IMG/VR virus record: IMGVR_UViG_2529292720_000011
Strand: one strand, 5' to 3'
DNA: 28,769 nucleotides
DNA from: a virus
Taxonomy: Duplodnaviria > Heunggongvirae > Uroviricota > Caudoviricetes
The notes under the pieces were generated by a model. The model searched no databases. It saw nothing but the letters and a program-made list of their open reading frames with translations, and was not told where the DNA came from. The translations under genes were made by a program, and so were the position numbers. Position 1 is the stretch's first letter, and every line of letters starts with the position of its first letter. Shown here piece by piece: positions 1-12,755 of this stretch.

Positions 1-1002
1 TTACCCTCTATTGTCAAAAGGGTTCAATTCAACAGCAGCCTCTAAATGACCTGGAGCAAAATGCGCATAACGCATAGTCATTTTTATATCGCTATGCCCC
101 AGTATTTTTTGCAACACAAGAATATTTCCGCCCCGCATCATAAAATGACTGGCAAACGTGTGACGTAGCACATGAGTTAATTGCCCATCAGGAAGCTCGA
201 TCTTCGCTCTCTTAATTGCAGCGTCAAAAGCCTCATAACATGGTGAAAATAGCGCTCCTCGTTTTTTAGGAAGCATAGCCTGCAATTGAGGTGAAATCGG
301 TACAGTGCGGTTCTTCTTTCCTTTAGTTTTAACAAATGTGATTCGACCGGGCAGTACTTGAGATTGCTTTAATCCTTCTGCTTCACTCCACCGAGCACCA
401 GTCGCAAGCCCAATACGGACAACAACCCCCAAATCTTTATTCCGTGACTCATCACACGCAATCAGAAGGCGTTCAATCTCATCTACATACAGAAACGCCA
501 GTTCCTTTTCTTCCTCACGAAACTTGCGAATACCAGTCAGGGGGTTTTCACCAGACCACTCCCCAAGGCGCTTCAGTTCGGCAAAAACAGCATGTAGATA
601 TGACTGCTCGCGATTAACGGTTGCTTCACTAAGTTTTTTCTTCCCCTTGGGATTCCATTCTCCTGATAGCCTTCTTTCCCGATAAGTAGCAAACATATTT
701 TTGTCAAACTGCGAAGCAAATGGATCTCCCAGCCTGGAACAAATCGCCTCAAGTTTGACTTTGCGCTCTGCACCAGAGGACAAGGTTTTACCGTACATCT
801 CAAACCAACGAGCAATCAACTCAGAAAGACGAGGACCAGAACCATCTTGAAACTCGTCTCCAACTCTACTATTCATTAAACGGCGCTCATAAGAGAGCGC
901 CTCACTTTTTGTCGCAAACTGTTTACGAATGCGTTTTCCCGATGCCCCGTAGGGATAACATTCGCAAAGCCATTTACCTGATGGAATCTTACGAACCGAC
1001 AT
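1..1002 (-). CDS. int: Tyrosine recombinase / phage integrase (P2-186 type)
   Basis: 333-aa ORF with the C-terminal catalytic signature HVLRHTFASHF...LGHSDIKMTMRYAH. It is the last gene of the minus-strand repressor operon, as in P2. The window starts at its stop codon. Confidence 0.95.
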   Translation of the reverse strand: MSVRKIPSGKWLCECYPYGASGKRIRKQFATKSEALSYERRLMNSRVGDEFQDGSGPRLSELIARWFEMYGKTLSSGAERKVKLEAICSRLGDPFASQFDKNMFATYRERRLSGEWNPKGKKKLSEATVNREQSYLHAVFAELKRLGEWSGENPLTGIRKFREEEKELAFLYVDEIERLLIACDESRNKDLGVVVRIGLATGARWSEAEGLKQSQVLPGRITFVKTKGKKNRTVPISPQLQAMLPKKRGALFSPCYEAFDAAIKRAKIELPDGQLTHVLRHTFASHFMMRGGNILVLQKILGHSDIKMTMRYAHFAPGHLEAAVELNPFDNRG

Positions 1003-1007
1003 TTTAG

Positions 1008-1354
1008 TTACTTATCACATAAATCAAATGCAGCCTTAGTGACATCCCCCAGACTCTTTTTTAACCCTGGGGCGGCATCATTATCTAGCCAAAATGGATT
1101 ATTGTTATCTAACGGTAACGCACCAAATGTTTTACCTTTTATTCGAGCCAAACCTGTAAGTGCATATAACTTATTATCGTCAAAATTCATTACATAAGGA
1201 TTACCATCAAGACACTGTAATTGAACCTCATCAGTATTAAATGGCCACACCCCATTGAAACTCTCACGTTCAATGGTTTTAAAAGGCATTGCGACGGCGG
1301 AAAAAGAAAACATAGATAAAAAGTAACTAATAGTTGAACCTTTTTAACTTTCAT
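1008..1354 (-). pseudogene. DUF2511/YebY-like periplasmic protein, signal peptide separated by a 1-nt frameshift
   Basis: ORF 1008..1313 (101 aa) resembles E. coli YebY as I recall it (W.FN..EV.L.C ... Y.L.G ... KKSL ... LC). It has no SD and no signal peptide of its own. A GAGG SD plus ATG at 1354 opens MKVKKVQLLVTF in another frame. One extra base in the A5 run at 1318-1322 would give MKVKKVQLLVTFLSMFSFSAVA|MPFK, a canonical Sec signal. Confidence 0.5.
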
Positions 1355-1383
1355 ATCATTACCTCAATTTAGCTCAAGTAAGA

Positions 1384-2034
1384 TTACAAATTAAAAAACG
1401 CTCTAGAAATGACACCGCCTACCAACCCCCCTACGCAGATAAAGAATATTATTTCTTTTGGATAAAGTCGGATTAATTCTGAAGCACGAAGTCGGACTTC
1501 TGGTAAGGTCGAACTCTCTGTGTGGCTTGATGCCGATTGTTGCTCTAACCACGACAATGCAGACTGTAACTGAGAACGAGTAAGATCGTTTAAACGTCCT
1601 GTACCGAAATTGATATGGCAATACCGCAGAAGTTTTTGTCGAAGTCCACAGTCTTCACTGTTACGTAGTAATAAACTTACAAGAGCCTTACAGGCATCAT
1701 GATCTTTACATCGCTCAAGCATTGCATGCAGAAAACTCTCCGCTGTTTTATATTGATTTACTGTCATATCATCAATACCAGCTACACCAATCTCCGCATG
1801 TACTTTTTGCCAAATAATAAACGCTTCAGTATTGCTAGCTTCTGCAATAGCAGCAACCAAGCTATTTAGCTCCTTACGCTGAGCCTTAAGCAAAGGGCGA
1901 TCGTCATCATCATTATTCGAAGGGATTGCGATATTGACGGTATGAGAACCATCATATCGCTCTATCTGAATATTCTTTTCGTGAAAATCACGCCCAGCAA
2001 CGCGATTGTTTGAACCGTTTGAGTTGACGGCCAT
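1384..2034 (-). CDS. Tail-anchored membrane protein of unknown function, co-transcribed with the repressor
   Basis: 216-aa ORF with SD GGAGG 4 nt upstream. There is a single C-terminal hydrophobic helix (IIFFICVGGLVGGVISRAFF). The N-terminus GSNNRVAGRDF repeats the C-terminal motif of the upstream repressor. I recognise no catalytic motif. Confidence 0.8.
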   Translation of the reverse strand: MAVNSNGSNNRVAGRDFHEKNIQIERYDGSHTVNIAIPSNNDDDDRPLLKAQRKELNSLVAAIAEASNTEAFIIWQKVHAEIGVAGIDDMTVNQYKTAESFLHAMLERCKDHDACKALVSLLLRNSEDCGLRQKLLRYCHINFGTGRLNDLTRSQLQSALSWLEQQSASSHTESSTLPEVRLRASELIRLYPKEIIFFICVGGLVGGVISRAFFNL

Positions 2035-2049
2035 GTCACCTCCCTACTA

Positions 2050-2454
2050 TCACCTGCCCTTAGTTTCGTTATAGTCACGACCAGCGATACGGTTATTACC
2101 ACCAGAAATATTTAACTCACGTCCTGATGGCTGAGTTTCCTTTTCACTGATCGCACCTTTTAAAGCCCCAATCACCGCGTTTTTCACATCTAACGAAGCT
2201 GCTCGAAAGCGAGTAATCAACTCCTGCTCATCATCGTTATAAGTTTCAGGTGAGTGAATTCCCAACACAACATACTGAACATCAAGGCCAAAACGAGACA
2301 GCGCTGCCAAATACGCAGCATCAGGAAAGCTATCTCCTTTCTCATATCTAAGCTGAGTTAGCTTTTTGACTCCACCAATGTCGCTCATGGCTACTTGACT
2401 AAGTCCCAATCTTTCCCTTTCCTCACGCAACCGCTGACCAATATCATTTTTCAT
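2050..2454 (-). CDS. XRE/Cro-CI family HTH repressor (immunity repressor by position)
   Basis: 134 aa. The N-terminal HTH is IGQRLREERERLGLSQVAMSDIGGVKKLTQLRYEKGDSFPDAAYLAALSRFGLDVQYVVLG. It is divergent from the early operon, like P2 C and 186 cI. The C-terminal tail ends GGNNRIAGRDYNETKGR. Confidence 0.85.
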   Translation of the reverse strand: MKNDIGQRLREERERLGLSQVAMSDIGGVKKLTQLRYEKGDSFPDAAYLAALSRFGLDVQYVVLGIHSPETYNDDEQELITRFRAASLDVKNAVIGALKGAISEKETQPSGRELNISGGNNRIAGRDYNETKGR

Positions 2455-2529
2455 ACAAAAACCTTGACAGGTATCTTTTTTGATACCAAAATGATTTCAC
2501 GAGCTATTAGATGATCACAATATACCACT
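2455..2529. promoter_or_regulatory. Divergent immunity-switch promoter/operator region
   Basis: 75-bp gap between the divergent repressor and early genes. Plus-strand TTGACA (2464-2469), 17-nt spacer, CAAAAT (2487-2492). A perfect dyad GGTATC (2470-2475) T6 GATACC (2482-2487) fills the spacer. A third TATACC half-site lies at 2521-2526. Confidence 0.55.
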
Positions 2530-2736
2530 ATGAAACAAGTTCTTCACGATACCAGATCACGCATTCCGCGTAACACCGCCACAGGTCCAAGACTGGCCCT
2601 TCGGCTGTCCCTCGAGGAGCGAGCCGTCATTGATGAAATGGCAGCTAAAGAACAACGCTCATCCTCTAACATGGCGCGCATGATCTTCCTTCGCGGCCTA
2701 GAACTAACCCAGAAAGAACAAAACAAATCTTCCTGA
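2530..2736 (+). CDS. Ribbon-helix-helix (CopG/Arc-like) small DNA-binding protein, first early gene
   Basis: 68 aa. RLALRLSLEERAVIDEMAAKEQRSSSNMARMIFLRGLE fits the RHH pattern of a beta strand plus two helices. It occupies the Cro/Apl/Cox position. Confidence 0.6.
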   Translation: MKQVLHDTRSRIPRNTATGPRLALRLSLEERAVIDEMAAKEQRSSSNMARMIFLRGLELTQKEQNKSS

Positions 2737-2752
2737 TCAAGAGGCTAGTGGG

Positions 2753-2956
2753 ATGTCAGGTATAACCATCAATATCAATGTGAATGCCCCCTATGTATCC
2801 CTGCAGAAATATGCAGAGATAACAGGTATCCCTCTTAATACATGCAAAAAGATGTTGGCTGACGGTCGAATTATTATCCGCCCCAAACGCGCCAAAATGG
2901 AAAAGCCTGAAGTAAACCTTGTGGCGATGTTAAAAGACGCTTTGACTAACAGCTAA
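2753..2956 (+). CDS. Cox/Apl-like excisionase-type HTH regulator
   Basis: 67 aa. YVSLQKYAEITGIPLNTCKKMLADGRIIIRPK resembles the P2 Cox HTH region (from memory). It is the second gene of the early operon. Confidence 0.55.
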   Translation: MSGITININVNAPYVSLQKYAEITGIPLNTCKKMLADGRIIIRPKRAKMEKPEVNLVAMLKDALTNS

Positions 2957-2977
2957 AACAATGAACAGAGCACCATC

Positions 2978-3328
2978 ATGAAAAAAAACGCTAATAATCC
3001 ATACTCCAAATTTCGTAATGGCGTAGAACGCCATGTACACCACGTCGCTACCAGTGCATCACGTAGTAACAGTCGCTATAACCTTAACGAGACGCACGCA
3101 ACACCGGATGGCCACGCTGTAAAACAAATCGGCGAGCATGCCTGGCTGATTGAGAAAGCTGGAATCGTGGTCCACAAATGCCCACGCAATCCGTTTACCG
3201 GAAACCGCATTTTTGCTCTAAGCAGTGGCGACAATCAGTTCGGGCAGGATTTCACATTATACGAAGCACTTCGCACGGTTGATCGTCTGCTTCGCGGGCA
3301 AAGTTTTATTAAACAGGCTGATTTATAA
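2978..3328 (+). CDS. Hypothetical early protein (116 aa)
   Basis: ORF in a tightly packed early operon. No recognisable motif. Confidence 0.6.
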   Translation: MKKNANNPYSKFRNGVERHVHHVATSASRSNSRYNLNETHATPDGHAVKQIGEHAWLIEKAGIVVHKCPRNPFTGNRIFALSSGDNQFGQDFTLYEALRTVDRLLRGQSFIKQADL

Positions 3329-3338
3329 CAGGTGCTTT

Positions 3339-3626
3339 ATGACCAAAGACCATGCACAAGGTGTATTTATCCGTTTTATTGATTTTCGCGGTGAACTGTT
3401 ATTACGTGCATCCGCTATTGACGGAGTGACTCCGGCGGGTAAAAACGGAGCCGACGAAGCCACTTACGTTTATCTGAACGGCACGCGACTGCTTGTGGAA
3501 CTTCCGTACCAGACCGTACGAGAAATCATTAGCGAAGCTGAAAAGGCACGCCAGGTTAATGGCGATGAACCCTATATCGAAATTATTTGTATGGATTCAG
3601 AAGCTGAAATACAGAAAGCAGATTAA
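3339..3626 (+). CDS. Hypothetical early protein (95 aa)
   Basis: ATG at 3339, 10 nt after the previous stop, in frame with track ORF 3225..3626. The upstream part of that ORF overlaps the preceding gene. Confidence 0.6.
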   Translation: MTKDHAQGVFIRFIDFRGELLLRASAIDGVTPAGKNGADEATYVYLNGTRLLVELPYQTVREIISEAEKARQVNGDEPYIEIICMDSEAEIQKAD

Positions 3627-3634
3627 AGGGCGTT

Positions 3635-3880
3635 GTGATGGGCAAAGAATATAAAACTCTCATTAACAAAGCACTTGAGCGTTTTTATTTTCGCTTAAGT
3701 GCATCAGGCGCTCATGCTGAACGTGCGGCCCGTGACTCATTGACCAGAGCAATCCGAAGTCTGTATGACGTAGCTTTTTACGCTGATGATCTGGATGCAC
3801 TTAACGAACTTTCCGAGCTGATCTGTGCCGCAGAATGCGGGGAACATATTGAACCGTATAAGCTGGGGAATATCGCATGA
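3635..3880 (+). CDS. Hypothetical early protein (about 80 aa)
   Basis: GTG 3635 or ATG 3638 start shortly after the previous stop. The predicted protein is helical and acidic. Confidence 0.6.
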   Translation: MMGKEYKTLINKALERFYFRLSASGAHAERAARDSLTRAIRSLYDVAFYADDLDALNELSELICAAECGEHIEPYKLGNIA

Positions 3881-3990
3881 GTATATTTATCTCATGGCTT
3901 GTTCTGATTATTTCGGTGGCCTGCGCTATTGGGATTATGCGAATTATTCATTCAATAAAAAAGATTGAACGCTTTTTCACTGGCGAATAA
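3877..3990 (+). CDS. Small single-pass membrane peptide (37 aa), not in the ORF track
   Basis: Its ATG overlaps the upstream stop (ATGA at 3877-3880). The product is MSIFISWLVLIISVACAIGIMRIIHSIKKIERFFTGE, a hydrophobic helix followed by a basic tail. Confidence 0.4.
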   Translation: MSIFISWLVLIISVACAIGIMRIIHSIKKIERFFTGE

Positions 3991-4076
3991 CAGAACAAAT
4001 AAAACCACAGATTAAATAAGAAAATGTAAAAACAATCCGCATTCGCGGAGGTATTCGCACACGCCAAGGAGGCGTA

Positions 4077-4280
4077 ATGGCAATTAAGCATTTTCCTGTC
4101 GTTCGTTTTACCTCCAGAGGGCGGGAATACGAAGTCGACGAACGCCTGATTACCACAATCGACAAACACCGTTCAGAAAAGGATGCACATCACATCTATC
4201 TCACTGACGGCACTTACTTCTGCGCCACGAATGTGGTGCGGGTGAACCTTATCCGACAGGTACAGGAGTCACGCAGATGA
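4077..4280 (+). CDS. Hypothetical early protein (67 aa)
   Basis: Strong SD AAGGAGG 6 nt upstream of the ATG. The stop overlaps the next start. Confidence 0.7.
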   Translation: MAIKHFPVVRFTSRGREYEVDERLITTIDKHRSEKDAHHIYLTDGTYFCATNVVRVNLIRQVQESRR

Positions 4281-4522
4281 CCATTCTGGACTATATTGCC
4301 GCCAATCCGGGGTGTAGCGGTGGAGAAATCGCCGCAGCACTGAATACCCCAACCACAGCCATTAATGCGGAGTTACGCCGACTCTGGCGCAGCGGTTCAG
4401 TCATAAGAAAAGAGCGCAAAACAGGCGGTCGCTTTTCTTACCAGATAAACCCGATGCCGTTCGGGTGTGGCAATCCACTTACCAACATGTTTAACCAGCT
4501 ACTGAAGGAAGCCAGAGCATGA
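4277..4522 (+). CDS. Winged-helix DNA-binding protein (81 aa)
   Basis: ILDYIAANPGCSGGEIAAALNTPTTAINAELRRLWRSGSVIRKERK fits an ArsR/MarR-like wHTH pattern. It is translationally coupled on both sides. Confidence 0.65.
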   Translation: MTILDYIAANPGCSGGEIAAALNTPTTAINAELRRLWRSGSVIRKERKTGGRFSYQINPMPFGCGNPLTNMFNQLLKEARA

Positions 4523-4818
4523 GCGCCATCAACCACAAGGAATTACGCGAACTGGCGACTGACCTGCAACGAATGGCAACGCCTCAAAAATTACTGGCGT
4601 TTCGCGCAATGCTCTCGCCGTCTGCTGTGCTGGCACTGCTGGATGAGCTGGAGCACGCCAGAACCACACCTCTCGCCATTCGCCTGACGCTCCGTCATGA
4701 AATCGAGGATTTCTGCGCGACGTTGGAGGCGCCAGGCGAACCGGAAACGCCGGAAGCAATACAGCAAGAGCTGCTGCAACGCATTGACAAGGTTTTTGAT
4801 TTTTTTCTGAACCACTAA
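4519..4818 (+). CDS. Hypothetical early protein (99 aa), Ead/Ea22-like flavour
   Basis: Coupled start (ATGA). The motif SPSAVLALLDELE is reminiscent of the Ead/Ea22-like family. The assignment is weak. Confidence 0.55.
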   Translation: MSAINHKELRELATDLQRMATPQKLLAFRAMLSPSAVLALLDELEHARTTPLAIRLTLRHEIEDFCATLEAPGEPETPEAIQQELLQRIDKVFDFFLNH

Positions 4819-4831
4819 GAAACCAGAACAT

Positions 4832-4969
4832 GCACACACAAAAAAACCGCTTGCCATGCCGCAATCAGTCAGGTTACATTTCCGCTGCACCTCATAAAAC
4901 GGGTGCCGGGTTTCGCAGCCCGCTGACAAACGTAGCGCACAACCGCGCCAGCGGTTTTTTTGTGCGTAC
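4832..4969. repeat. 138-bp element closed by a 20-nt inverted repeat, with U7-tailed hairpins on both strands
   Basis: GCACACACAAAAAAACCGCT (4832-4851) matches the reverse complement of AGCGGTTTTTTTGTGCGTAC (4950-4969) at 18/20 positions, with a perfect 13-nt core. The local hairpin AACCGC-GCCA-GCGGTT plus T7 (4941-4961) looks like an intrinsic terminator. Confidence 0.5.
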
Positions 4970-5002
4970 TGTATCGCCACGTCTTTTTCGCATCTGAATT
5001 AT

Positions 5003-5078
5003 GGTGGGGCGTACGGGGCCGACTTCGGTCGGGCCGGGTTCTGCGTTTGCCGGTACTGCGAACCTCGTACGTCTCGCC
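5003..5078 (+). ncRNA. Candidate 76-nt Y-shaped structured RNA
   Basis: Hand fold. A 13-bp closing helix pairs 5003-5015 with 5066-5078 (10 Watson-Crick pairs, 3 G.U). Hairpin 5017-5035 has a C(UUCG)G tetraloop at 5023-5028. Hairpin 5037-5064 has an 11-nt loop. The junction is three-way with single-nucleotide linkers. It sits in a 320-bp non-coding gap. Confidence 0.35.
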
Positions 5079-5140
5079 ACCCACAGTTTCGCAGCTCTGG
5101 ATGGTGAGGTTTCAAAACTTACACACGTAGAGGCCACACC

Positions 5141-5371
5141 ATGGCAAACCGCAAACAGCACCGCGCTATCGCGGAGCGTCGTCACATCCAGACTGAAATC
5201 AACCGCAGACTTTCCCGCGCATCACGCGTCGCGCAAATCATGCACATCAATATGCTGCATGAGCGTAGCTGCGAACTTTCAAACCTCTATTCATCCGCTG
5301 TTTTCAGTTATCTGGCGGATGATCTGCGCGAGCTTCAGCAGCTCATCCAGCAGCAAAACAAACTCCATTAA
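5141..5371 (+). CDS. Hypothetical early protein (76 aa, basic N-terminus)
   Basis: SD GAGG 8 nt upstream of the ATG. The product is a helical basic protein. Confidence 0.65.
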   Translation: MANRKQHRAIAERRHIQTEINRRLSRASRVAQIMHINMLHERSCELSNLYSSAVFSYLADDLRELQQLIQQQNKLH

Positions 5372-5443
5372 TTCCTGTTCCGGGCCTTTCCTGCACCTTG
5401 CGGCGGGAGGCCTTCGCACATCTGTAACAAGAGGATTGCCGCA

Positions 5444-5809
5444 ATGATTCTCGCCAACGACTTTCTTGAATACCTGCTCAACACAGAACGTGATCTTGCC
5501 GTTCGCGTGCGTGAACGTTATGACATGTACCTGAAATCCCTGCCTGTACCGCAGCTCGCTGACGGAAAGATTGTTATTGATGGTCGCTACATGATTGACA
5601 GCCACGAGGGAAATTACAGGCTTTACCGCATTGAAGGTGGCACCCCGTCCGTTATTGGCATTTACCAGCGCCCATCCTCTGCAATCGTCGATGTGATTGC
5701 CGACAGCATCCGCATCACACATCGCCATGCCGACACAGAAGACACCGTGCTGGAAATTCAGCGGCTGGCTACAGTCTGCCGCGACACCCTGAATGGCATA
5801 ACGAAGTAA
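5444..5809 (+). CDS. Hypothetical early protein (121 aa)
   Basis: ORF immediately upstream of gpA. No motif recognised. Confidence 0.65.
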   Translation: MILANDFLEYLLNTERDLAVRVRERYDMYLKSLPVPQLADGKIVIDGRYMIDSHEGNYRLYRIEGGTPSVIGIYQRPSSAIVDVIADSIRITHRHADTEDTVLEIQRLATVCRDTLNGITK

Positions 5810-5815
5810 ATCACT

Positions 5816-8623
5816 ATGACGGCAGAGTACATCAGGGACTGGCAGCAACCGCGCCACGCAGTGGGGCGTGAAGGAACGGGGATCCCCGCTCCTGAATCCG
5901 CGCTTTCCTCCTGGCTGGATGCCTACCGGGCAGAGAACGAGCGCTGCCAGGAAATGGCTGATGCGGCGTTCTCCGCCACGCCGCTGGGCAACCTGATTAA
6001 TAAAAGCCTGGACGCACAGGAAAAACAGGACAAAACCATCACACTGGCAGGAGACGCCAGAAAGCAGGTACGCGGCGCGGTGGATGAAGCCATGGCCTCG
6101 CTGCGCCTGCTGCCATCCTATCTGCGCGATCCGCTTATTCGCCACCTCTCCTTCCTGCGCAAAAAACAGGAATCTGACCGCCAGAAAGGTAAAAAGAACC
6201 AGCAGGCTGAACGCTACGCGCGCGGGACCCTGCGCAAAATATTCGAACGTCTGGATCGCACTGACGGGCGCTGGCTGACACCGGGTTATCGCTCCCTTGC
6301 CGGGCGCGAACGCCTGGACGATTTGCTTTCCCTGCCGCAGCTCAACAAGCACCAGATACAGACGCTGGCCACCATGACGGCGGCGATGTTCAGCAGCACC
6401 TTCGAAACACTCTGCGATGGCTTTGGTGCCAGAGATGGCGAGCTGACCATGGATGTAATGTTGAAGGCTTACCGGATGCTGGCCCGTATCGCATTACGCC
6501 TGCACATCATGCCGCCACATTACGAAGCCCTGAACAAGAGCGATCCGGATACGGAACTGTTACCGGGCGCAATCCTTCGCCTGACCTGTGCGGAATGGTG
6601 GAAACGCAAATTGTGGCTGTTACGTTGCGAGTGGAGAGAAGAACAACTCCGCGCCGCCTGTCTGGTTTCCAGAAAAACATCACCCTATCTGAGCCAGGAC
6701 GCGTTAAGCGAGTTTCGCGCACAGCGCGAGAAAACACGCGATTTCCTGAAAAGTTTCATGCTGGAAAACGAAGACGGGTTCACGATTGATCTCGAGACAG
6801 TGTATTACGCGGGAGTAAGTAACCCGGTTCACCGTAAGGCAGAAATGATGGCCACCATGAAGGGGCTGGAACTTCTGGCCGAAGCCCGTGGCGACAAAGC
6901 GGTGTTTCTGACTGTCACCTGCCCGTCAAAATACCACGCCACAACAGAGAACGGTCATCCGAATCCCAAATGGAACGGGGCCACCATGCGCGACTCCAGC
7001 GATTACCTGGTTAACACGTTTTTTGCGGCGGTCCGCAAGAAACTGAACCGCGACGGCCTGCGCTGGTATGGCATCCGCACGGTGGAGCCTCACCATGACG
7101 GCACCGTGCACTGGCATATGATGGTCTTTGCACATCCGGACGAGATTGAAACCATCGTGTCCCACGTCTGCGATATTGCCATTCAGGAAGACCGCCACGA
7201 GCTGGGCGATGACATAACTCCGCGTTTTAAGGCGGAGTACGTAGACGGCTCAAAAGGCACACCAACCAGCTACATCGCCACCTACATCGGAAAGAACCTG
7301 GACAGCCGCGCCGTGGATGGCATCGACCAGAAAACGGGCAAGCCACGCGTTGACCACGAAACCGGAAAATCAATGGCCGAGAGCGTGGAACGCGCCATCG
7401 GCTGGGCGCGCCTTCACCGGGTCCGCCAGTTCCAGTTCTTTGGCATCCCCTCCCGTCAGGTGTGGCGTGAACTCCGCCGCCTTGCCAGCCAGATGGCACG
7501 CAACCCGGAAGGCCCGCAACGGCTGAAGGATGACGCAATGGATGCGGTACTCGCTGCCGCTGATGCAGGATGTTTTGCCACCTACATAGAGAAACAGGGC
7601 GGCGTACTTGTTCCACGCAAAGACTACCTGATTCGCACCGCCTACGACCTCGCCGATGAGCTGAACGATTACGGCGAACAGAGCGTACAGATTTACGGGA
7701 TCTGGTCACCACTCATCGGGGAATCCTCCCGTGTGTGCACGCATCCGGATAACTGGAAGCTGGTAAGACGCAAACCGGAAGCGGAAGACAGCGCCCGCGA
7801 AAATGGTTTTGACCTTCAGGGCGGCCCTGCCGCCCCTTGGACTCGTGGCAATAACTGTCCCCGTGTACAGGAAACAGGCAACAGCGGGACAGAACAGTCG
7901 AAAGAACGGCCAGCACCGTGGCCGCAGCTTCCTGACGGCGTTGAAGTGAACGAATGGATGCGCTCACTGAAACGGCACGAACGCCGGGCGCTGATGCGTT
8001 CGCTTCGTGACAAACAGGTAAAAAACAGCAGTGATGAAATGCAGAGCTGGACACAGAGCCGCAAACAGCAGCGGCCTTTGCCTGATAACCACGAATTACT
8101 CGCTAAAGAATGGCGGGAGTCTGCCGAATCTCTCGGCCTGCATATCGGTGAACAGCAGATGCAGCACCTGCTACGGGGCGGCAGCCTGTACGTTGACGGC
8201 AGCATCATTGCACCGCAGGGATATGAAATTGTACGCAAACCGGATACCCGCCCGGACAGCCGAATCACGCAGCTCTGGCAGCACCTGAGCCGTAATCACG
8301 GCGTAAGCAGCACGGAGATCCGCCATAACCCGGTCGCCAGCTATCTGGCACAGCTGGGGGCATCAGACCCCGAAGCCGCCGCACGCCTGGCATCCGCACT
8401 TCAGCAGGATCAGAACACCATGAAAACACCCGTTACCGTGCTTTCTGACATGCTGCGCGCCATCCGCGACGCAGAGCACGCACAGAGAATCAGTGAAACC
8501 ACTGAACGCGCCAGCCGCAAAGCAGACCTGCTGCAGGGTGGCCTGACCAGTGGAAACAAAAAACAGACAGAAACGGGATCCACAAATCCCGTAAATGAGC
8601 AAAAAACGCGCCGCGATATATGA
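5816..8623 (+). CDS. A: Replication initiation endonuclease, P2 gpA family (HUH rolling-circle initiator)
   Basis: 935 aa. It has the HUH-type motif VEPHHDGTVHWHMMVF and the catalytic Tyr motif SYIATYIGKN, typical of P2/186 A. The C-terminal ~230 aa is a charged, low-complexity extension beyond P2 A, which I recall as ~761 aa. Confidence 0.9.
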   Translation: MTAEYIRDWQQPRHAVGREGTGIPAPESALSSWLDAYRAENERCQEMADAAFSATPLGNLINKSLDAQEKQDKTITLAGDARKQVRGAVDEAMASLRLLPSYLRDPLIRHLSFLRKKQESDRQKGKKNQQAERYARGTLRKIFERLDRTDGRWLTPGYRSLAGRERLDDLLSLPQLNKHQIQTLATMTAAMFSSTFETLCDGFGARDGELTMDVMLKAYRMLARIALRLHIMPPHYEALNKSDPDTELLPGAILRLTCAEWWKRKLWLLRCEWREEQLRAACLVSRKTSPYLSQDALSEFRAQREKTRDFLKSFMLENEDGFTIDLETVYYAGVSNPVHRKAEMMATMKGLELLAEARGDKAVFLTVTCPSKYHATTENGHPNPKWNGATMRDSSDYLVNTFFAAVRKKLNRDGLRWYGIRTVEPHHDGTVHWHMMVFAHPDEIETIVSHVCDIAIQEDRHELGDDITPRFKAEYVDGSKGTPTSYIATYIGKNLDSRAVDGIDQKTGKPRVDHETGKSMAESVERAIGWARLHRVRQFQFFGIPSRQVWRELRRLASQMARNPEGPQRLKDDAMDAVLAAADAGCFATYIEKQGGVLVPRKDYLIRTAYDLADELNDYGEQSVQIYGIWSPLIGESSRVCTHPDNWKLVRRKPEAEDSARENGFDLQGGPAAPWTRGNNCPRVQETGNSGTEQSKERPAPWPQLPDGVEVNEWMRSLKRHERRALMRSLRDKQVKNSSDEMQSWTQSRKQQRPLPDNHELLAKEWRESAESLGLHIGEQQMQHLLRGGSLYVDGSIIAPQGYEIVRKPDTRPDSRITQLWQHLSRNHGVSSTEIRHNPVASYLAQLGASDPEAAARLASALQQDQNTMKTPVTVLSDMLRAIRDAEHAQRISETTERASRKADLLQGGLTSGNKKQTETGSTNPVNEQKTRRDI

Positions 8624-8668
8624 AGCGCGCACAAAACAGGCGAAAGCGGGATTTAAAAATCCCGTAAA
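8573..8668. promoter_or_regulatory. Two palindrome-containing sites sharing AAATCCCGTAAA (candidate parC-like ParR sites / parM promoter)
   Basis: ACGGGAT-N6-ATCCCGTAAA lies at 8573-8595, inside the 3' end of A. CGGGATTT-AA-AAATCCCGTAAA lies at 8647-8668. The 12-nt cores are 73 bp apart, directly upstream of parM. Confidence 0.4.
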
Positions 8669-8699
8669 CGGTTAATTAACCAACATAAGGAAAATCGAC

Positions 8700-9659
8700 A
8701 TGAAAATTTGTATCGACGACGGCTCCACCAACATCAAGCTGGCATGGACTGAGAACGGCGAACGCCGCAACGCCATCAGCCCGAACAGCTTCAAGTCGGA
8801 ATGGTCTGCGCCGTTCGGTGGCACGCATCCCGCGAACTACATGCTTGATGGCGTGCGCTATGGCTTTGATCCGGTCAGCGATCGTTTTGTCCAGACGACT
8901 GACACGCAATACCAGTACAGCGATGTGAATGTAATCGCCATTCATCACGCGCTGGTCAAATCAGGCATCACGCCACAGGAGGTGGATGTGGTTGTCACCC
9001 TGCCACTGAGCGAGTATTTCGACACAAACGCACAGCCGGACATGGCCAACATCAACCGCAAAAAAGCGAACGTCATGCGCCCGGTGGAGTACCAGAACGG
9101 CGAAGCATTCACTATCCGTAACGTACGGGTTATGCCTGAATCCATTCCGGCTGGCTTTAAGGCACTGGCTGACATGAGTCCGTTTGAATCCCTGCTGATT
9201 GTGGATTTGGGCGGAACCACGCTGGATGTGGCAAAGGTTCAGGGGCAGCTGGCAGGTATCAGCCAGGTGTTTTGCGATCCAAACGTAGGCGTTTCCCTGA
9301 TGGCTGATGCCGTGCTGTCGGTGATGGCCACTAACGGTATGCGTACCAGTCACCACATCGCCAATACCATTATTGAGCACCGTCACGATGAAGCCTGGCT
9401 GCGCCAGCACATTCACAATGACGCGCATTACAACAGCCTGATGGCGGTTATTCGTGAAAAGGAGGAGACACTGAAACAACGAGTGATCCGCGCGCTGGCG
9501 GGTTTTTCCGGTTACGGGCGGGTGATGGTTGTCGGTGGAGGGGCGGAGATTGTGGCACCCGCTATCCGCGAAGCCTGCGGAGTTAATGCGACTTTCATCG
9601 CGGACGGGGTGCCACAGTTTGCTCTGGTTAATGGGCTGTACGCAATGAACAAGGAGTAA
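8700..9659 (+). CDS. parM: Actin-like plasmid segregation ATPase ParM (StbA family)
   Basis: 319 aa, colinear with plasmid R1 ParM as I recall it. Shared blocks: IDDGSTNIKL, ISPNSFK.EW, QYSDVNV.A.HHAL, VMPESIPAG, DSLLI.DLGGTTLD, VMV.GGGAE, LVNG.Y. Confidence 0.9.
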   Translation: MKICIDDGSTNIKLAWTENGERRNAISPNSFKSEWSAPFGGTHPANYMLDGVRYGFDPVSDRFVQTTDTQYQYSDVNVIAIHHALVKSGITPQEVDVVVTLPLSEYFDTNAQPDMANINRKKANVMRPVEYQNGEAFTIRNVRVMPESIPAGFKALADMSPFESLLIVDLGGTTLDVAKVQGQLAGISQVFCDPNVGVSLMADAVLSVMATNGMRTSHHIANTIIEHRHDEAWLRQHIHNDAHYNSLMAVIREKEETLKQRVIRALAGFSGYGRVMVVGGGAEIVAPAIREACGVNATFIADGVPQFALVNGLYAMNKE

Positions 9660-9663
9660 ACCA

Positions 9664-9975
9664 ATGACGACACCAACCAGAAGAATAAGTTTCTATCTGA
9701 AGCCAGCTGCCGTCAAGAACGAAGGAGAAGCATGCGCATGGCTGGACAGCCTTACACCAGAAGCCCGCAAAAGCGGCCAACGCGTGGCTTTTCTGGCCGG
9801 GCTGGCACTTCTGAAGACGAATCCGGCAGAGGCTTACCGACTGGCCGCATGGGCTGATGATGAGATGTTACCTGTGACACAAATCAGCTCAAAAAAGTTT
9901 GAAGCACAGTCTGCACCAGTGGCTAAGATAACCAGCCAGATGGCTGGGAATATCCGGGCGTTATTTCCTGGGTAA
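9664..9975 (+). CDS. parR: ParR-like centromere-binding adaptor
   Basis: 103 aa. RRISFYLKP...ACAWLDSLTPEARKSGQRVAFLAGLALLKTNP parallels R1 ParR RRTIAFKLNP...LDSIPQGERSRLNRAALTAGLALYRQDP (from memory). SD AAGGAG. It directly follows parM. Confidence 0.75.
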   Translation: MTTPTRRISFYLKPAAVKNEGEACAWLDSLTPEARKSGQRVAFLAGLALLKTNPAEAYRLAAWADDEMLPVTQISSKKFEAQSAPVAKITSQMAGNIRALFPG

Positions 9976-10095
9976 AAGCATCTGCGCGAAAAATGCTCAC
10001 ATTTATAGAAACAGTATCATTCCATTTGGCGCACTTACTTCAATAATCGATCTGTTAAACAAATAGATTGTCTATTATCTATCGATTAAAACGAT

Positions 10096-10160
10096 CAATT
10101 ATCTTGACAGTAATGTGCCTTTTTGTAAGATCGTTCGCATTGTGAGCGACAAGATAATTG
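10096..10160 (+). promoter_or_regulatory. Sigma70-type promoter bracketed by a perfect 11-bp inverted repeat (operator pair)
   Basis: TTGACA (10104-10109), 16-nt spacer, TAAGAT (10126-10131). CAATTATCTTG (10096-10106) is the exact reverse complement of CAAGATAATTG (10150-10160). An AT-rich dyad with ATCGAT sites lies upstream at 10042-10090. Confidence 0.55.
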
Positions 10161-10175
10161 CGCGGCATTGTCCAT

Positions 10176-10272
10176 GCAAAACGCCCCAATAGCAGCAACT
10201 ATTGGGGCGTAGAACTCGGTCGGACTCACTTAACCTGATATGCGTGCCTTCCGAAGTAAATCAAAATGTGCG
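10176..10272 (-). ncRNA. Candidate ~95-nt antisense small RNA
   Basis: Minus-strand promoter: TTTACA (10307-10302), 17-nt spacer, TAAAAT (10284-10279). A 12-bp GC-rich hairpin follows (10210-10199 pairs with 10192-10181, loop of 6) and then TTTTG. The whole RNA is complementary to the leader of the 89-aa gene. Confidence 0.4.
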
Positions 10273-10318
10273 TCGTATATTTTATTGCTTACACGCACCT
10301 CTGTAAAGGCACGCATAT
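10238..10318. repeat. Nested perfect inverted repeat in the leader of the 89-aa gene
   Basis: ATATGCGTGCCTT (10238-10250) pairs with AAGGCACGCATAT (10306-10318). These enclose GTGCGT (10268-10273) and ACGCAC (10293-10298). The right arm ends 10 nt before the SD GAGG (10328-10331). Confidence 0.7.
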
Positions 10319-10339
10319 TTTTCCTATGAGGTAAATAAA

Positions 10340-10609
10340 GTGCGGGCTAAAACAGGTATTTGCAAGAACCCTCATCGTTATAACCCAACATTTCTGTCTC
10401 TCCCTGAATATCAAGGACAAGAAGGTCGGCACAAATGCGCTGCCTGTGCTTTTGAGCTAGGCATAAAAGATGCGCTTGAAGGACGCGCTATGGCTCAGAA
10501 TGATTTAGTTTTAGCTAACATTCCGTTTAGCCAGGCTGGAACTGTAAGGCACAGAGATGCTTATGAAGCATATGTTAGTGGTTGGCGATTAATACACAGC
10601 AACAATTGA
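10340..10609 (+). CDS. Orphan 89-aa Cys/His-containing protein
   Basis: GTG start with SD GAGG 8 nt upstream. The product contains ICKNPHRYNP...GRHKCAACAFELG, a possible metal-binding cluster. It is followed by a strong terminator. I recognise no family. Confidence 0.6.
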   Translation: MRAKTGICKNPHRYNPTFLSLPEYQGQEGRHKCAACAFELGIKDALEGRAMAQNDLVLANIPFSQAGTVRHRDAYEAYVSGWRLIHSNN

Positions 10610-10617
10610 TATTTTTG

Positions 10618-10641
10618 AAGCGCCGATAAGGCGCTTTTTTT
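10618..10641 (+). terminator. Rho-independent terminator
   Basis: AAGCGCC-GATAA-GGCGCTT followed by a T run, 9 nt after the stop of the 89-aa ORF. Confidence 0.85.
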
Positions 10642-10871
10642 GTTTGCACGATAGTGCACAAGTTTGCACAATTTTTTTGAACGACTTTTTGTACTTCCGG
10701 CCCGCGTGGCGGCTGGATCCGTCAAGGATCCGTACGTGCACAAAAAACGCGTTTTTTCTACGCGCAGGTGACGGGGGAACAGCCCGCGTTTCAGGGGGTA
10801 AATAGCATTCCCTGAACGATGTCGCAGAGACACAACAGAATGGCCATATTTCTCACGCTGAGCATGAAAAA

Positions 10872-10910
10872 GGCGTGAGGGCTTTTGATTTGATGGGGGG
10901 AAAGGTAAGG
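10872..10910. other. Candidate cos (cohesive end) region
   Basis: GGCGTGAGGGCTTTTGATTTGATGGGGGGAAAGGTAAGG contains both halves of the P2/186 19-nt cohesive end (GGCG[A/T]GGCGGGGAAAGCA[C/T], from memory), separated by about 13 extra nt. It lies in a ~500-bp non-coding stretch upstream of the packaging genes. Confidence 0.3.
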
Positions 10911-11169
10911 CCGTCAAAATCGCACTGAGGCAGCGAGAACATACAGTCAACGTGGTGGGATTGCGTAAGAGTCTGACCGTCGATGGTGGCGATAAACTGG
11001 AAGGCGTCGTGAAATTATCTGATTGATACAGGAGCTGGAGAGTCGGGGCATAAATTTTTTATGCCCCGGCGAAGCAGCAGACAAGCGAAGCGCGTCAGCG
11101 ATACGGCACCTTGCCGACCATACTTCGTAAGTGCAAAATACGAGCAAAGAAATCAATGGAGGCTGTCTT

Positions 11170-11694
11170 ATGGTCATTAATTACAAGCAGTTAAGAGAAA
11201 AACGGGAGCAGGTAAAGGAGAGCTTTCGCCGCAATGAAGATCTGACCCCGCTTGTACGCCTTGCCCAGGGCATTGTTGATGCTTATGAAATCTCGCTGGA
11301 GCTGCCATCACAGACCTGGACAGATAGCGACGGTAATCGCCAGCATTACGTTTCATGCGGACTGGAAGCAGCCGAAGGATTTCGCAGAATGCCTTTATCT
11401 CAGATCCCTGCCGCTACCCCCAAAGCAAGGGGCGGCAATGATGAGCGAAAACTGATTTTCAGCATTGAGACAGTGGTTGACGACACACCTGGCGAAGTCG
11501 CCTTCGTGCATACTCCTCTTTCGATCGCAATGTATAACGATGAAATACAGGTTCGCGTTAATAATAATATCGTGCCACTTAAAGAAGGTAATTCACCCTA
11601 CACCACCGTTTGTGAAGCCATTCAATATTACGTTTTCTCTGAAATTGATAATCTCAAGCCTGACGGCACCCAGAAAATGGTTCAGCTCTGGTAA
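11170..11694 (+). CDS. Orphan 174-aa protein between the cos-like region and the portal gene
   Basis: ATG 11170 with SD GGAGG (11158-11162) 7 nt upstream. This is preferred over the track's GTG start at 11131. Possible promoter TTGCCG-17-CAAAAT at 11111-11139. It has its own terminator. No motif recognised. Confidence 0.65.
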   Translation: MVINYKQLREKREQVKESFRRNEDLTPLVRLAQGIVDAYEISLELPSQTWTDSDGNRQHYVSCGLEAAEGFRRMPLSQIPAATPKARGGNDERKLIFSIETVVDDTPGEVAFVHTPLSIAMYNDEIQVRVNNNIVPLKEGNSPYTTVCEAIQYYVFSEIDNLKPDGTQKMVQLW

Positions 11695-11699
11695 AAAGG

Positions 11700-11725
11700 A
11701 CAGCCCCATCACGGGGCTGTTTTTT
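11700..11725. terminator. Bidirectional Rho-independent terminator shared by the 174-aa ORF and portal gene Q
   Basis: CAGCCCC-ATCAC-GGGGCTG followed by T6 on the plus strand and by TCCTTTTT on the minus strand. The Q stop codon (11709-11711) lies in the loop. Confidence 0.8.
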
Positions 11726-12755
11726 CATCAAGAAGAGCATAAGAGTTAAAACGGATCACCTCTTCGCCAAGCCAGTCATTGATGTGCTTCATGGCCTCCA
11801 TAACGGGCATCAGCTCGTTAATTGCGTAAACCCGCGCGGCCTTCTCCACATCACCAAACGCACTTTTTTCGCCCGGCATCGCCCCCATCAGTTGCGGCGG
11901 AACACGGTGCGCAGCCAGCACATCATCACGGGATGCCGCCTTAACATTCATGAACTCATCTTTTGCGGTGATCTGCTGGAACGGCAAAATTTGCACCCCC
12001 TCTTTGCCCCCGTTGGGCGCATGAATGAGCACGTTTTTAAACGCACCACCACCACGTGCCCCCTGTAGCGTTTCTTTCAGGGAGTCCATGCTTTCGCGGT
12101 TTACCTGCGCTGCACCGATGTAGATGATGCACCCGGCGTGGGATCCGTTGTCGTAGTACAGTTTTCTGAACATGTCCGCCGAATGAGAAAGGCTGGCCGA
12201 GAGTAATGCGCCAAGATATTCCGGCATGCCGTAGATTTCCTGGTTAATATCCGGATTCATCAGGTGGCACACTTTGCCAGGACGAAACTGAAACGCGTCC
12301 TTGCCATCCTGCACATACCACCATGATTCAAGATCGCTTCCGCGTCGCATGTATTTCGCCAGGGCGTGCCGTAATTTAAGCGGTTCGCCGAGCATATTGC
12401 TCCGAAGCTCAAGGAATGCGTTACCGAACACAAACCAGTCCAGCGCCAGCGCCGAGAAATCCTGCCGGGAAAGCAGCGGGTGCGGAATATAGCAGCCGAG
12501 CAATACATTGCGCTTAAAGTAAAGCGCAGACTGATGCCAGGACGTTTGCCGGGCAGCTCTTGCCAGACCGTACCAGTCCACCGGGGTTTCATACCACCGC
12601 CCGTTATCAGCACAGTACATATTGTCCAGCAGGTCATGCCCGGTCAGGCGATAAGGACCATCAAATGTGAATGCACTGAGCGATGATTCTTTCCTGAGCG
12701 CATCAGCGAGATCAATGCGTGAACTCATGCGCACTTTTTTATTTTTTCTGCTCAT
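11709..12755 (-). CDS. Q: Portal protein (P2 gpQ)
   Basis: 348 aa. Size, position and orientation match P2 Q. It overlaps the stop of the terminase gene by 1 nt. Confidence 0.9.
   Translation of the reverse strand: MSRKNKKVRMSSRIDLADALRKESSLSAFTFDGPYRLTGHDLLDNMYCADNGRWYETPVDWYGLARAARQTSWHQSALYFKRNVLLGCYIPHPLLSRQDFSALALDWFVFGNAFLELRSNMLGEPLKLRHALAKYMRRGSDLESWWYVQDGKDAFQFRPGKVCHLMNPDINQEIYGMPEYLGALLSASLSHSADMFRKLYYDNGSHAGCIIYIGAAQVNRESMDSLKETLQGARGGGAFKNVLIHAPNGGKEGVQILPFQQITAKDEFMNVKAASRDDVLAAHRVPPQLMGAMPGEKSAFGDVEKAARVYAINELMPVMEAMKHINDWLGEEVIRFNSYALLDEKTAP

Follow-up and report, generated by a model that had tools for sequence, protein, structure and literature searches.

Actin-type partition systems and the P88-type cassette

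Actin-type (type II, ParMRC) partition is known from plasmids R1 and R100/NR1 (parA / stbAB). The parC of R1 is made of ten 11-bp iterons, and the characterised ParM homologues form filaments. Among phages, the P1-like D6 is a phage-plasmid that is kept as a plasmid, so that a partition role is obvious there. In normally integrated elements, srpMRC of the SXT/R391 integrative and conjugative elements (ICEs) stabilises the excised form, its expression being confined to the time around excision (PMC4489591), and AlpAC of the Corynebacterium glutamicum prophage CGP3 is switched on early and is required for CGP3 to replicate efficiently (PMC4446434). We examined a parM-parR cassette in a 28,769-nt stretch of Caudoviricetes virus DNA (IMG/VR record IMGVR_UViG_2529292720_000011; the whole stretch is hereafter called the window), which is an integrating, P2-like prophage of the P88 type from Escherichia coli.

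With moderate confidence, we read this cassette as a working type II (ParMRC) DNA-segregation module that temperate phages of the P88 type, and other P2-like ones, have in their replication operon. The original prediction saw no evident need for a segrosome in a phage that integrates, a view that overlooks srpMRC of SXT/R391 (PMC4489591) and AlpAC of CGP3 (PMC4446434). Of the explanations that it listed, the one that still fits best is that the cassette positions or segregates replicating phage DNA.

Chromosomal prophages of E. coli O114:H49 90-9280 and ETEC-2264 match the region at 100% identity, the prophage of enterotoxigenic E. coli (ETEC) H10407 does so at 99.9%, and the cultured phages P88, 520873, P884B11 and Citrobacter phiSM (genus Xuanwuvirus, family Peduoviridae) at 94-96%. 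RefSeq already names the two products 'plasmid segregation protein ParM' and 'plasmid partitioning/stability family protein', PHROGs 691 and 2515 are both labelled 'partition protein', and the records of phage P88 name the cassette too. Full-text literature searches turned up no work on the function of ParMR in P88-like or P2-like phages; the finding is thus the correct recognition of an annotated, uncharacterised member of a known system. What is new here is comparative evidence for a minimal two-palindrome centromere and for a conserved, phage-specific lineage in P2-like phages.

ParM and ParR

The two open reading frames (ORFs) have the lengths and positions that had been claimed for them (Table 1), and the claimed colinearity with R1 ParM, with intact nucleotide-binding blocks, was confirmed. 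ParM matched the Pfam StbA_N (3e-82) and ParM C-terminal (2e-68) domains and aligned end to end with R1 ParM (PDB 1mwk; E 8.5e-93), about half of the residues being identical. The blocks DDGSTNIK, VMPESIPAG, DLGGTTLD and GGGAE are the same in both proteins, and a check of this alignment for inactivating substitutions found the phosphate-1, connect, phosphate-2 and adenosine motifs all intact. The parM product is a predicted canonical actin-fold ATPase of the R1/pB171 family.

The ParR assignment of the 103-aa product was likewise borne out by a match to Pfam Plasmid_stab_B (1e-23) and by an hhalign probability of 97% to R100 ParR, with which it shares 34% identity over residues 6-61 (56 residues). 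The best PDB match of a 14-sequence ParR profile was the pB171 ParR structure 2jd3 (E 0.006), and ParR is the predicted adaptor of the same R1/pB171 family. Alignment of the distant phage ParRs with R100 ParR gave a three-part architecture of conserved N-terminal domain, hypervariable linker and conserved C-terminal tail (Table 1). The tail motif is kept in all phage ParR alleles and aligns with the extreme C-terminus of R100 ParR (KKNAMKLIN); in R1 ParR, the C-terminus is the part that binds ParM. The AlphaFold monomer is poor (predicted local distance difference test, pLDDT, 55) and agrees only with the layout of helices, disordered linker and C-terminal helix, the latter placed with low confidence at residues 87-100.

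ParR alleles fall into classes that are 97-98%, ~83% and ~55% identical to that of the window, and the first 18 residues and the tail are shared by all. ParM is at least 97.8% identical across phages whose ParR linkers differ. Linker turnover appears mosaic, with dS (the synonymous substitution rate) above that of the rest of the gene, and the helices and the C-terminal NIxxLFP stay fixed. A scan with the ParR alignment, covering one genome per species, recovered only 3 loci, as its patterns were overly specific.

Two palindromes at the gpA-parM junction

Two palindrome-bearing sites that share a 12-mer, 73 bp apart, had been reported at the gpA-parM junction. Both are real, and they lie within a larger 39-nt direct repeat, whose two units are 79% identical, 73 bp apart, and contain one palindrome each. 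The core GGGA-N8-TCCC occurs twice in the 28.8-kb window, both times at the junction, against 0.29 occurrences expected by chance, and also just twice in one complete related phage genome. The GGGA/TCCC arms are unchanged in 11 relatives, and the palindrome centres and outer pairs vary without compensation. In one Hafnia prophage (L013) the gpA stop codon falls within palindrome 1, so that the right arm of site 1, the GC dyad between the sites and the whole of site 2 are non-coding there, yet conserved.

Pair counts in the alignment of relatives gave no covariation beyond shuffled controls, either in the palindromes or in the GC dyad. The dyad showed one compensatory change (C-G to T-A in phage 520873) and wobble pairs in Hafnia, and its pairing is broken in another relative (L014); this is not significant. 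Rfam gave no match at the junction when positions 8300-11800 were scanned, where the only match was a weak, partial one elsewhere, to sar RNA (22 bits, below the gathering score of 43). We therefore rejected RNA hairpins as an explanation of the palindromes and the dyad. Invariant arms, uncompensated centres and the lack of covariation fit protein-binding DNA sites better.

The spacing would also suit such sites: the half-site centres are ~11 bp apart (about one helical turn), as two ribbon-helix-helix dimers on one helix face would need, and the 73 bp between the sites would make seven helical turns. Taken together, the sequence features make the two palindromes good candidates for a minimal parC. 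The statement that the sites flank the likely parM promoter found no support, as no sigma-70-like promoter was found between or after them.

The cassette across P2-like lineages

The survey of P2-like prophages called for in the original prediction showed that the arrangement recurs in four other genera. The closest ParM relatives (54-63% identity) belong to P2-like prophages of Hafnia, Plesiomonas, Serratia and Enterobacter, and the order gpA...parM-parR...portal was found in all of them. The ParR N-terminus reads RRISFYLKP in the window, where the two GGGA-N8-TCCC cores are a form of GGG-N10-CCC. It reads RRISFYLNP in Plesiomonas (L016) and RRVSFYLKP in Hafnia L019, and both have two GGG-N10-CCC sites upstream of parM, 72 and 73 bp apart, respectively. 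Serratia (L017) and Enterobacter (L018) share the N-terminus NRKISFYLKPAHSRAD and have a large inverted repeat, ATAGAAAAAT / ATTTTTCT, upstream of parM, to which Enterobacter adds outer GGGAAC / GTTCCC arms. Across the sequences compared, the repeat type changes along with the type of ParR N-terminus. The two-site layout that had been likened to parC is conserved and travels with parMR, and the sites themselves are unlike the R1 iterons.

The 72-73 bp spacing is kept in three lineages, whichever gene lies upstream. The sequence that overlies site 1 is the gpA tail in Plesiomonas and a 167-aa ORF in Hafnia L019, both non-homologous to the window. Two extra genes in Enterobacter and another gene in Hafnia L019 separate gpA from parM, and in both cases the repeats remain beside parM. 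Since the overlying sequence is unrelated and the repeats stay by parM, they belong to the par cassette and not to gpA or its origin.

These observations bear on a different role, which we consider decidedly unlikely, in which ParM and ParR would be mainly accessory to the gpA nuclease, stimulating nicking or organising a replication complex at the 3' end of gene A, and not segregating DNA. gpA is a nicking enzyme like TraI, both being HUH endonucleases, and the candidate ParR sites overlap the end of gpA in most lineages. R1 ParM and ParR bind TraI and enhance its relaxase reaction, and the ParM ATPase is in turn stimulated by TraI (PMC4949242); this suggests, by analogy, a possible coupling to gpA, which we kept as a rival. 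In some backgrounds, R391 also has fewer extrachromosomal copies once srpM is deleted (PMC4489591). The genes intervening between gpA and parM in Enterobacter and Hafnia L019, the non-homologous gpA tails over site 1 and the lack of direct evidence of any interaction speak against it, and segregation remains the reading that we prefer.

In a neighbour-joining tree, calculated without support values, the phage ParMs grouped together, apart from plasmid and ICE ParMs. This is evidence for a conserved phage-specific lineage within P2-like phages, in which the linkage appears to be ancient. At ParM identities of 50% or less, the contexts examined were one conjugative element and one integrated plasmid: ParM/ParR pairs of ~50% identity lie in an integrated conjugative element of a Dickeya chromosome (L020; integrase, TraG, TraU) and in an integrated plasmid of a Mangrovibacter chromosome (L021; Rep3, ParAB). 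Type II partition genes are therefore not rare in integrated elements.

Expression context

Promoters were searched with a crude consensus test for sigma-70-like sites (at least 9/12 matches), which weak or non-sigma-70 promoters escape. By this weak test, no sigma-70-like promoter was found on the plus strand at 8300-8700, and a ParR-autoregulated promoter within the candidate parC was not evident. No plus-strand terminator was found between gpA and parM, and parMR is probably co-transcribed with gpA. Without a promoter or terminator between the two genes, parMR probably acts on excised, replicating phage circles.

Upstream of gpA, the early-gene gap holds an isrK-like small RNA and a C4 antisense RNA, followed by a gene of the 'Derepression' family (Table 1). 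This arrangement resembles an RNA-gated antirepressor operon and may gate the expression of gpA and parMR; it suggests that parMR would be expressed with the replication genes once immunity is lifted. We found no LexA box upstream of the antirepressor-gpA-parMR genes.

The AT-rich dyad that had been proposed as a further ParR target does exist past the cassette, and its role as parC was rejected. It belongs to the variable cargo, adjoins a good promoter (TTGACA-16-TAAGAT) that reads into the next, variable gene, and is missing from P88 and phiSM, in which the ParR N-terminal, DNA-binding domain is the same. The variable cargo may also encode an antisense small RNA (10104-10320) that opposes this promoter, as a promoter-like site on the minus strand is followed by a perfect 12-bp terminator hairpin and TTTTG; its only Rfam match is the weak, partial one to sar RNA given above.

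Prevalence and selection

We searched 5426 complete E. coli genomes, counting matches that covered at least 80% of the query. P88-type gpA was present in 1319 genomes and parM in 1279 (~24%), so that parM accompanies ~97% of P88-type gpA genes. Identity to the parM of the window was 95-99% in 1278 of the 1304 matching records. The ratio of nonsynonymous to synonymous substitution rates (dN/dS) against the window was 0.05-0.11 for parM and 0.03-0.15 for ParR residues 1-64, which places parM and the ParR N-terminal domain under strong purifying selection; the ParR linker is more divergent and mosaic than the N-terminal domain. A near-identical parMR with its upstream sites was also found in an E. 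coli-type P88-like prophage on a 226-kb contig labelled Vagococcus sp. WN89Y (L007, NZ_JBQPOM010000071.1), most likely through contamination or mislabelling.

Phage-to-phage homology ends at or just after parR, which makes parMR a core gene pair bordering the variable cargo region, and not cargo itself. The claimed placement of the cassette, directly after gpA at the start of a hotspot, was borne out: it borders the variable stretch that lies ahead of the portal gene.

A cassette that borders the variable region between gpA and portal could instead serve the host or a conflict between elements, as a means of incompatibility with or exclusion of ParMR plasmids, as anti-phage defence cargo, or as a hitch-hiking pair without a role for the phage. 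The phiSM study goes no further than listing the gene as a putative 'fitness factor' (PMC6456863). We consider all of this very unlikely. The pair is near-universal with P88-type gpA, homology breaks only past parR, selection is strongly purifying, and neither ParM nor ParR had a PADLOC match, so that defence cargo was rejected. Exclusion of ParMR plasmids, one of the explanations offered originally, is disfavoured too: in PLSDB this ParR type occurs only in prophage-carrying records and in no genuine plasmid, the parC iterons of R1 and R100 are unrelated to the sites of the window, and the identity to R100 ParR is only 34% over 56 residues.

Integrated and circular forms

Of 1443 parM places in the E. 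coli genomes, 1441 were chromosomal, and every lineage examined with a visible left end keeps an integrase. Extrachromosomal circular copies, which the original prediction had suggested looking for, were sought through the junction sequence of the phage attachment site (attP). A contiguous attP junction was found in 0/443 genomes with that integrase type, by a junction-spanning query that circular records with their origin at the attachment site (att) escape, and one circular record was found in PLSDB. This record, pZ1323PEC0009-2 (L006, NZ_CP148288.1), was deposited as a circular plasmid of 34,461 bp from an E. coli isolate of a cat and is a complete P88-like phage genome. Matches of a junction query made from it broke exactly at the record origin, which is the att break point of integrated copies, and a sister strain of Z1323PEC0009 carries the same phage integrated (99.9% identity). 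The most plausible reading of the record is therefore an excised copy that the assembly picked up. The 'plasmid unnamed' of Shigella boydii (L015, NZ_CP049283.1) was rejected as a plasmid form, as it is a linear 26.8-kb contig with an IS1-disrupted P88-like prophage and is uninformative; its parM/parR region matches the window in part, without annotated genes.

A gene for a Hok/Gef family toxin lies beside ogr at the right end of related P88-like prophages (42501-42641 in ETEC H10407, L001; 1291-1431 in pZ1323PEC0009-2). Besides parMRC, these prophages have in it a second module of the type found among the stability loci of plasmid R1; the gene lies outside the window.

Such a combination would fit facultative phage-plasmid lysogeny, in which the phage would be kept as a low-copy plasmid over many generations, for instance where its bacterial attachment site (attB) is occupied or absent, with gpA and ori as replicon, ParMRC for partition and the hok-family gene for post-segregational killing. 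The adjoining gpA and parMRC look like a plasmid basic replicon with its partition cassette, a complete circular copy with an attP junction was deposited, and the only other phage with this ParM type in our collection is the P1-like D6. Gene A and ori of P2 can reportedly drive a mini-chromosome, as Liu et al. are said to have found in 1993. On the other side stand the chromosomal parM places, the lack of contiguous attP junctions, the integrated phage of the sister strain, the retained integrase and the origin of the circular record, which fits an excised copy split off in the assembly graph. Moreover, parMR appears to be on the lytic/replication transcript, and in a lysogen that transcript should be silenced by the repressor. 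We consider facultative phage-plasmid lysogeny unlikely. Stable plasmid lysogeny is not the norm, and both the facultative episomal state of the original prediction and the classification as phage-plasmids are disfavoured.

A bolder form of this idea, also unlikely, would make P2-like phages with gpA, ParMRC and hok hidden integrative phage-plasmids. When integration is blocked or delayed (attB occupied or absent, or spontaneous excision without lysis), they would be inherited as low-copy rolling-circle plasmids through the two-site centromere, and ParM/ParR might couple to gpA as R1 ParM/ParR do to TraI. If true, this episomal reading would change the view of lysogeny and host range of P2-like phages.

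Proposed role of the cassette

Under the segregation reading, which we favour, parMR would be silent in the integrated prophage and transcribed with gpA on derepression or fresh infection. ParR would then bind both junction palindromes, probably as a dimer of dimers on each, and its conserved C-terminal tail would capture the ends of ParM-ATP filaments. P2-type replication gives monomeric circles, which are the packaging substrate; the growing filaments would push apart and disperse such circular genomes as they arise from gpA-driven rolling-circle replication. Excised or not-yet-integrated circles would thereby be neither lost nor clumped, and replication and packaging could become more efficient.

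Several points weigh against this role. R1 parC has ten iterons, far more than the two sites seen here, so that the element might serve chiefly as an operator. A weak or non-sigma-70 parM promoter would escape the crude promoter scan. We infer ParR binding, filament formation and phenotype from sequence, and the AlphaFold model of ParR is poor. The lytic cycle is short and without cell division, so that the benefit of segregation is not obvious, and to our knowledge P2 and 186 manage without such a module.

The cassette is present in about a quarter of complete E. coli genomes, including ETEC, O157, O111 and ST131 strains, and represents, within the best-understood bacterial actin system, a branch that is phage-specific and strongly conserved. 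It would be a tractable Gram-negative model of a temperate phage that applies a cytoskeletal motor to its own DNA, could shed light on the behaviour of integrating elements while they are transiently circular, and would offer, with two palindromes, a naturally minimal centromere for dissecting ParR-ParM coupling.

Layout of the window

The early genes form a long string on the plus strand, of which gpA, parM and parR are the final three, followed by ~1.7 kb of other DNA and then by the portal and terminase genes on the minus strand. The gap between gpA and parM is 76 nt, and parR starts 5 nt past the parM stop codon. The N-terminal 700 residues of gpA are 55% identical to the Plesiomonas protein (789 aa). 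Residues ~700-935 (window 7900-8623) form a C-terminal extension without detectable homology to the Plesiomonas tail or to the 167-aa ORF found as a separate gene after gpA in Hafnia L019.

Table 1. Positions of genes, RNAs and sequence elements in the window.
Feature	Position	Strand	Details
Tyrosine integrase	1-1002	minus	
Repressor-like helix-turn-helix gene	2050-2454	minus	after the integrase
isrK-like small RNA	4887-4961		69.6 bits; own promoter-like site 4851-4880, terminator 4941-4956
C4 antisense (immunity) RNA	4997-5084		80.4 bits; after the isrK-like RNA, in the early-gene gap
'Derepression' family protein gene	5141-5371		followed by an unknown ORF, gpA and parMR
gpA, rolling-circle replication endonuclease	5816-8623	plus	935 aa; Pfam Phage_GPA 7e-129
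Repeat unit 1, putative parC-like centromere/operator	8557-8595	plus	inside the gpA 3' end
Palindrome 1, ACGGGAT-N6-ATCCCGT	8573-8592		core GGGA-N8-TCCC at 8575-8590
Shared 12-mer AAATCCCGTAAA	8584-8595 and 8657-8668		
GC dyad, CGCGC / GCGCG	8607-8611 / 8625-8629	plus	between the sites; gpA stop codon (8621-8623) in the loop
Repeat unit 2, putative parC	8630-8668	plus	intergenic; ends 31 nt before the parM ATG
Palindrome 2, CGGGATTT-AA-AAATCCCG	8647-8664		core at 8648-8663
parM Shine-Dalgarno region, AAGGAAAA	8687-8694	plus	seen in the sequence; kept in all relatives
parM	8700-9659	plus	319 aa; Pfam StbA_N and ParM C-terminal domain; PHROG 691
parR	9664-9975	plus	103 aa; Pfam Plasmid_stab_B
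ParR N-terminal DNA-binding domain	aa 1-64		predicted ribbon-helix-helix type; R-[RK]-[IV]-S-F-Y-L-[KN]-P, then helices; conserved
ParR linker	aa 65-93 (9856-9945)		hypervariable, probably disordered
ParR C-terminal tail, NIRALFP			presumed ParM-binding helix; conserved as N-[AI]-x-x-L-F-P
AT-rich dyad	10043-10068 / 10077-10102		arms 73% complementary; variable region past the cassette
Promoter TTGACA-16-TAAGAT	10104-10131	plus	reads into ORF 10340-10609
Terminator hairpin of possible antisense RNA	10210-10181	minus	perfect 12 bp, then TTTTG
Promoter-like site of possible antisense RNA	10307-10279	minus	
ORF of unknown function	10340-10609		PHROG 3941

Comparison with known systems

The D6 StbA/ParM is 48% identical to ParM of the window, and D6 is the only other phage with this ParM type among 50,697 records; its adaptor, in contrast, has no detectable similarity to ParR of the window. 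The parMRC systems of R1 and R100/NR1 have the same gene order, parC-parM-parR, a ParM that is homologous over its full length, and a ParR of the same Pfam family with a homologous N-terminal domain and an aligned C-terminal motif. They differ in host and neighbourhood, as the cassette of the window belongs to a P2-like phage that integrates and has a rolling-circle nuclease gene upstream, and in ParR length, which is 103 aa in the window, compared with 116 aa in the R100 record. In the plasmids, C-rich direct iterons lie on either side of a clear promoter, whereas the window has two GGGA-N8-TCCC palindromes 73 bp apart and no autoregulated promoter evident in the consensus scan.

Like the cassette of the window, srpMRC of SXT/R391 is an actin-type partition module in a normally integrated element, strictly conserved in its family (PMC4489591). 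It is expressed only with excision and replication functions and acts on a transient, rolling-circle circular form, as would probably also be the case for the window. Its host, however, is a conjugative element and not a phage, SrpR does not resemble ParR in sequence, and the relation of SrpM to ParM is structural only, whereas both proteins of the window are close homologues of the R1 family. The AlpA/AlpC/alpS system of CGP3 likewise combines a prophage actin-like filament with a DNA-binding adaptor whose sites lie upstream of its own operon (PMC4446434, PMC5539076); it is induced early after excision and links circular phage DNA to filaments. It belongs to a Gram-positive host and another phage type, and is set apart by its description in these papers as actin-like and ParMRS-resembling, ParM of the window being of the canonical R1 type. 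By analogy, the module of the window parallels srpMRC of SXT/R391 and AlpAC of CGP3.

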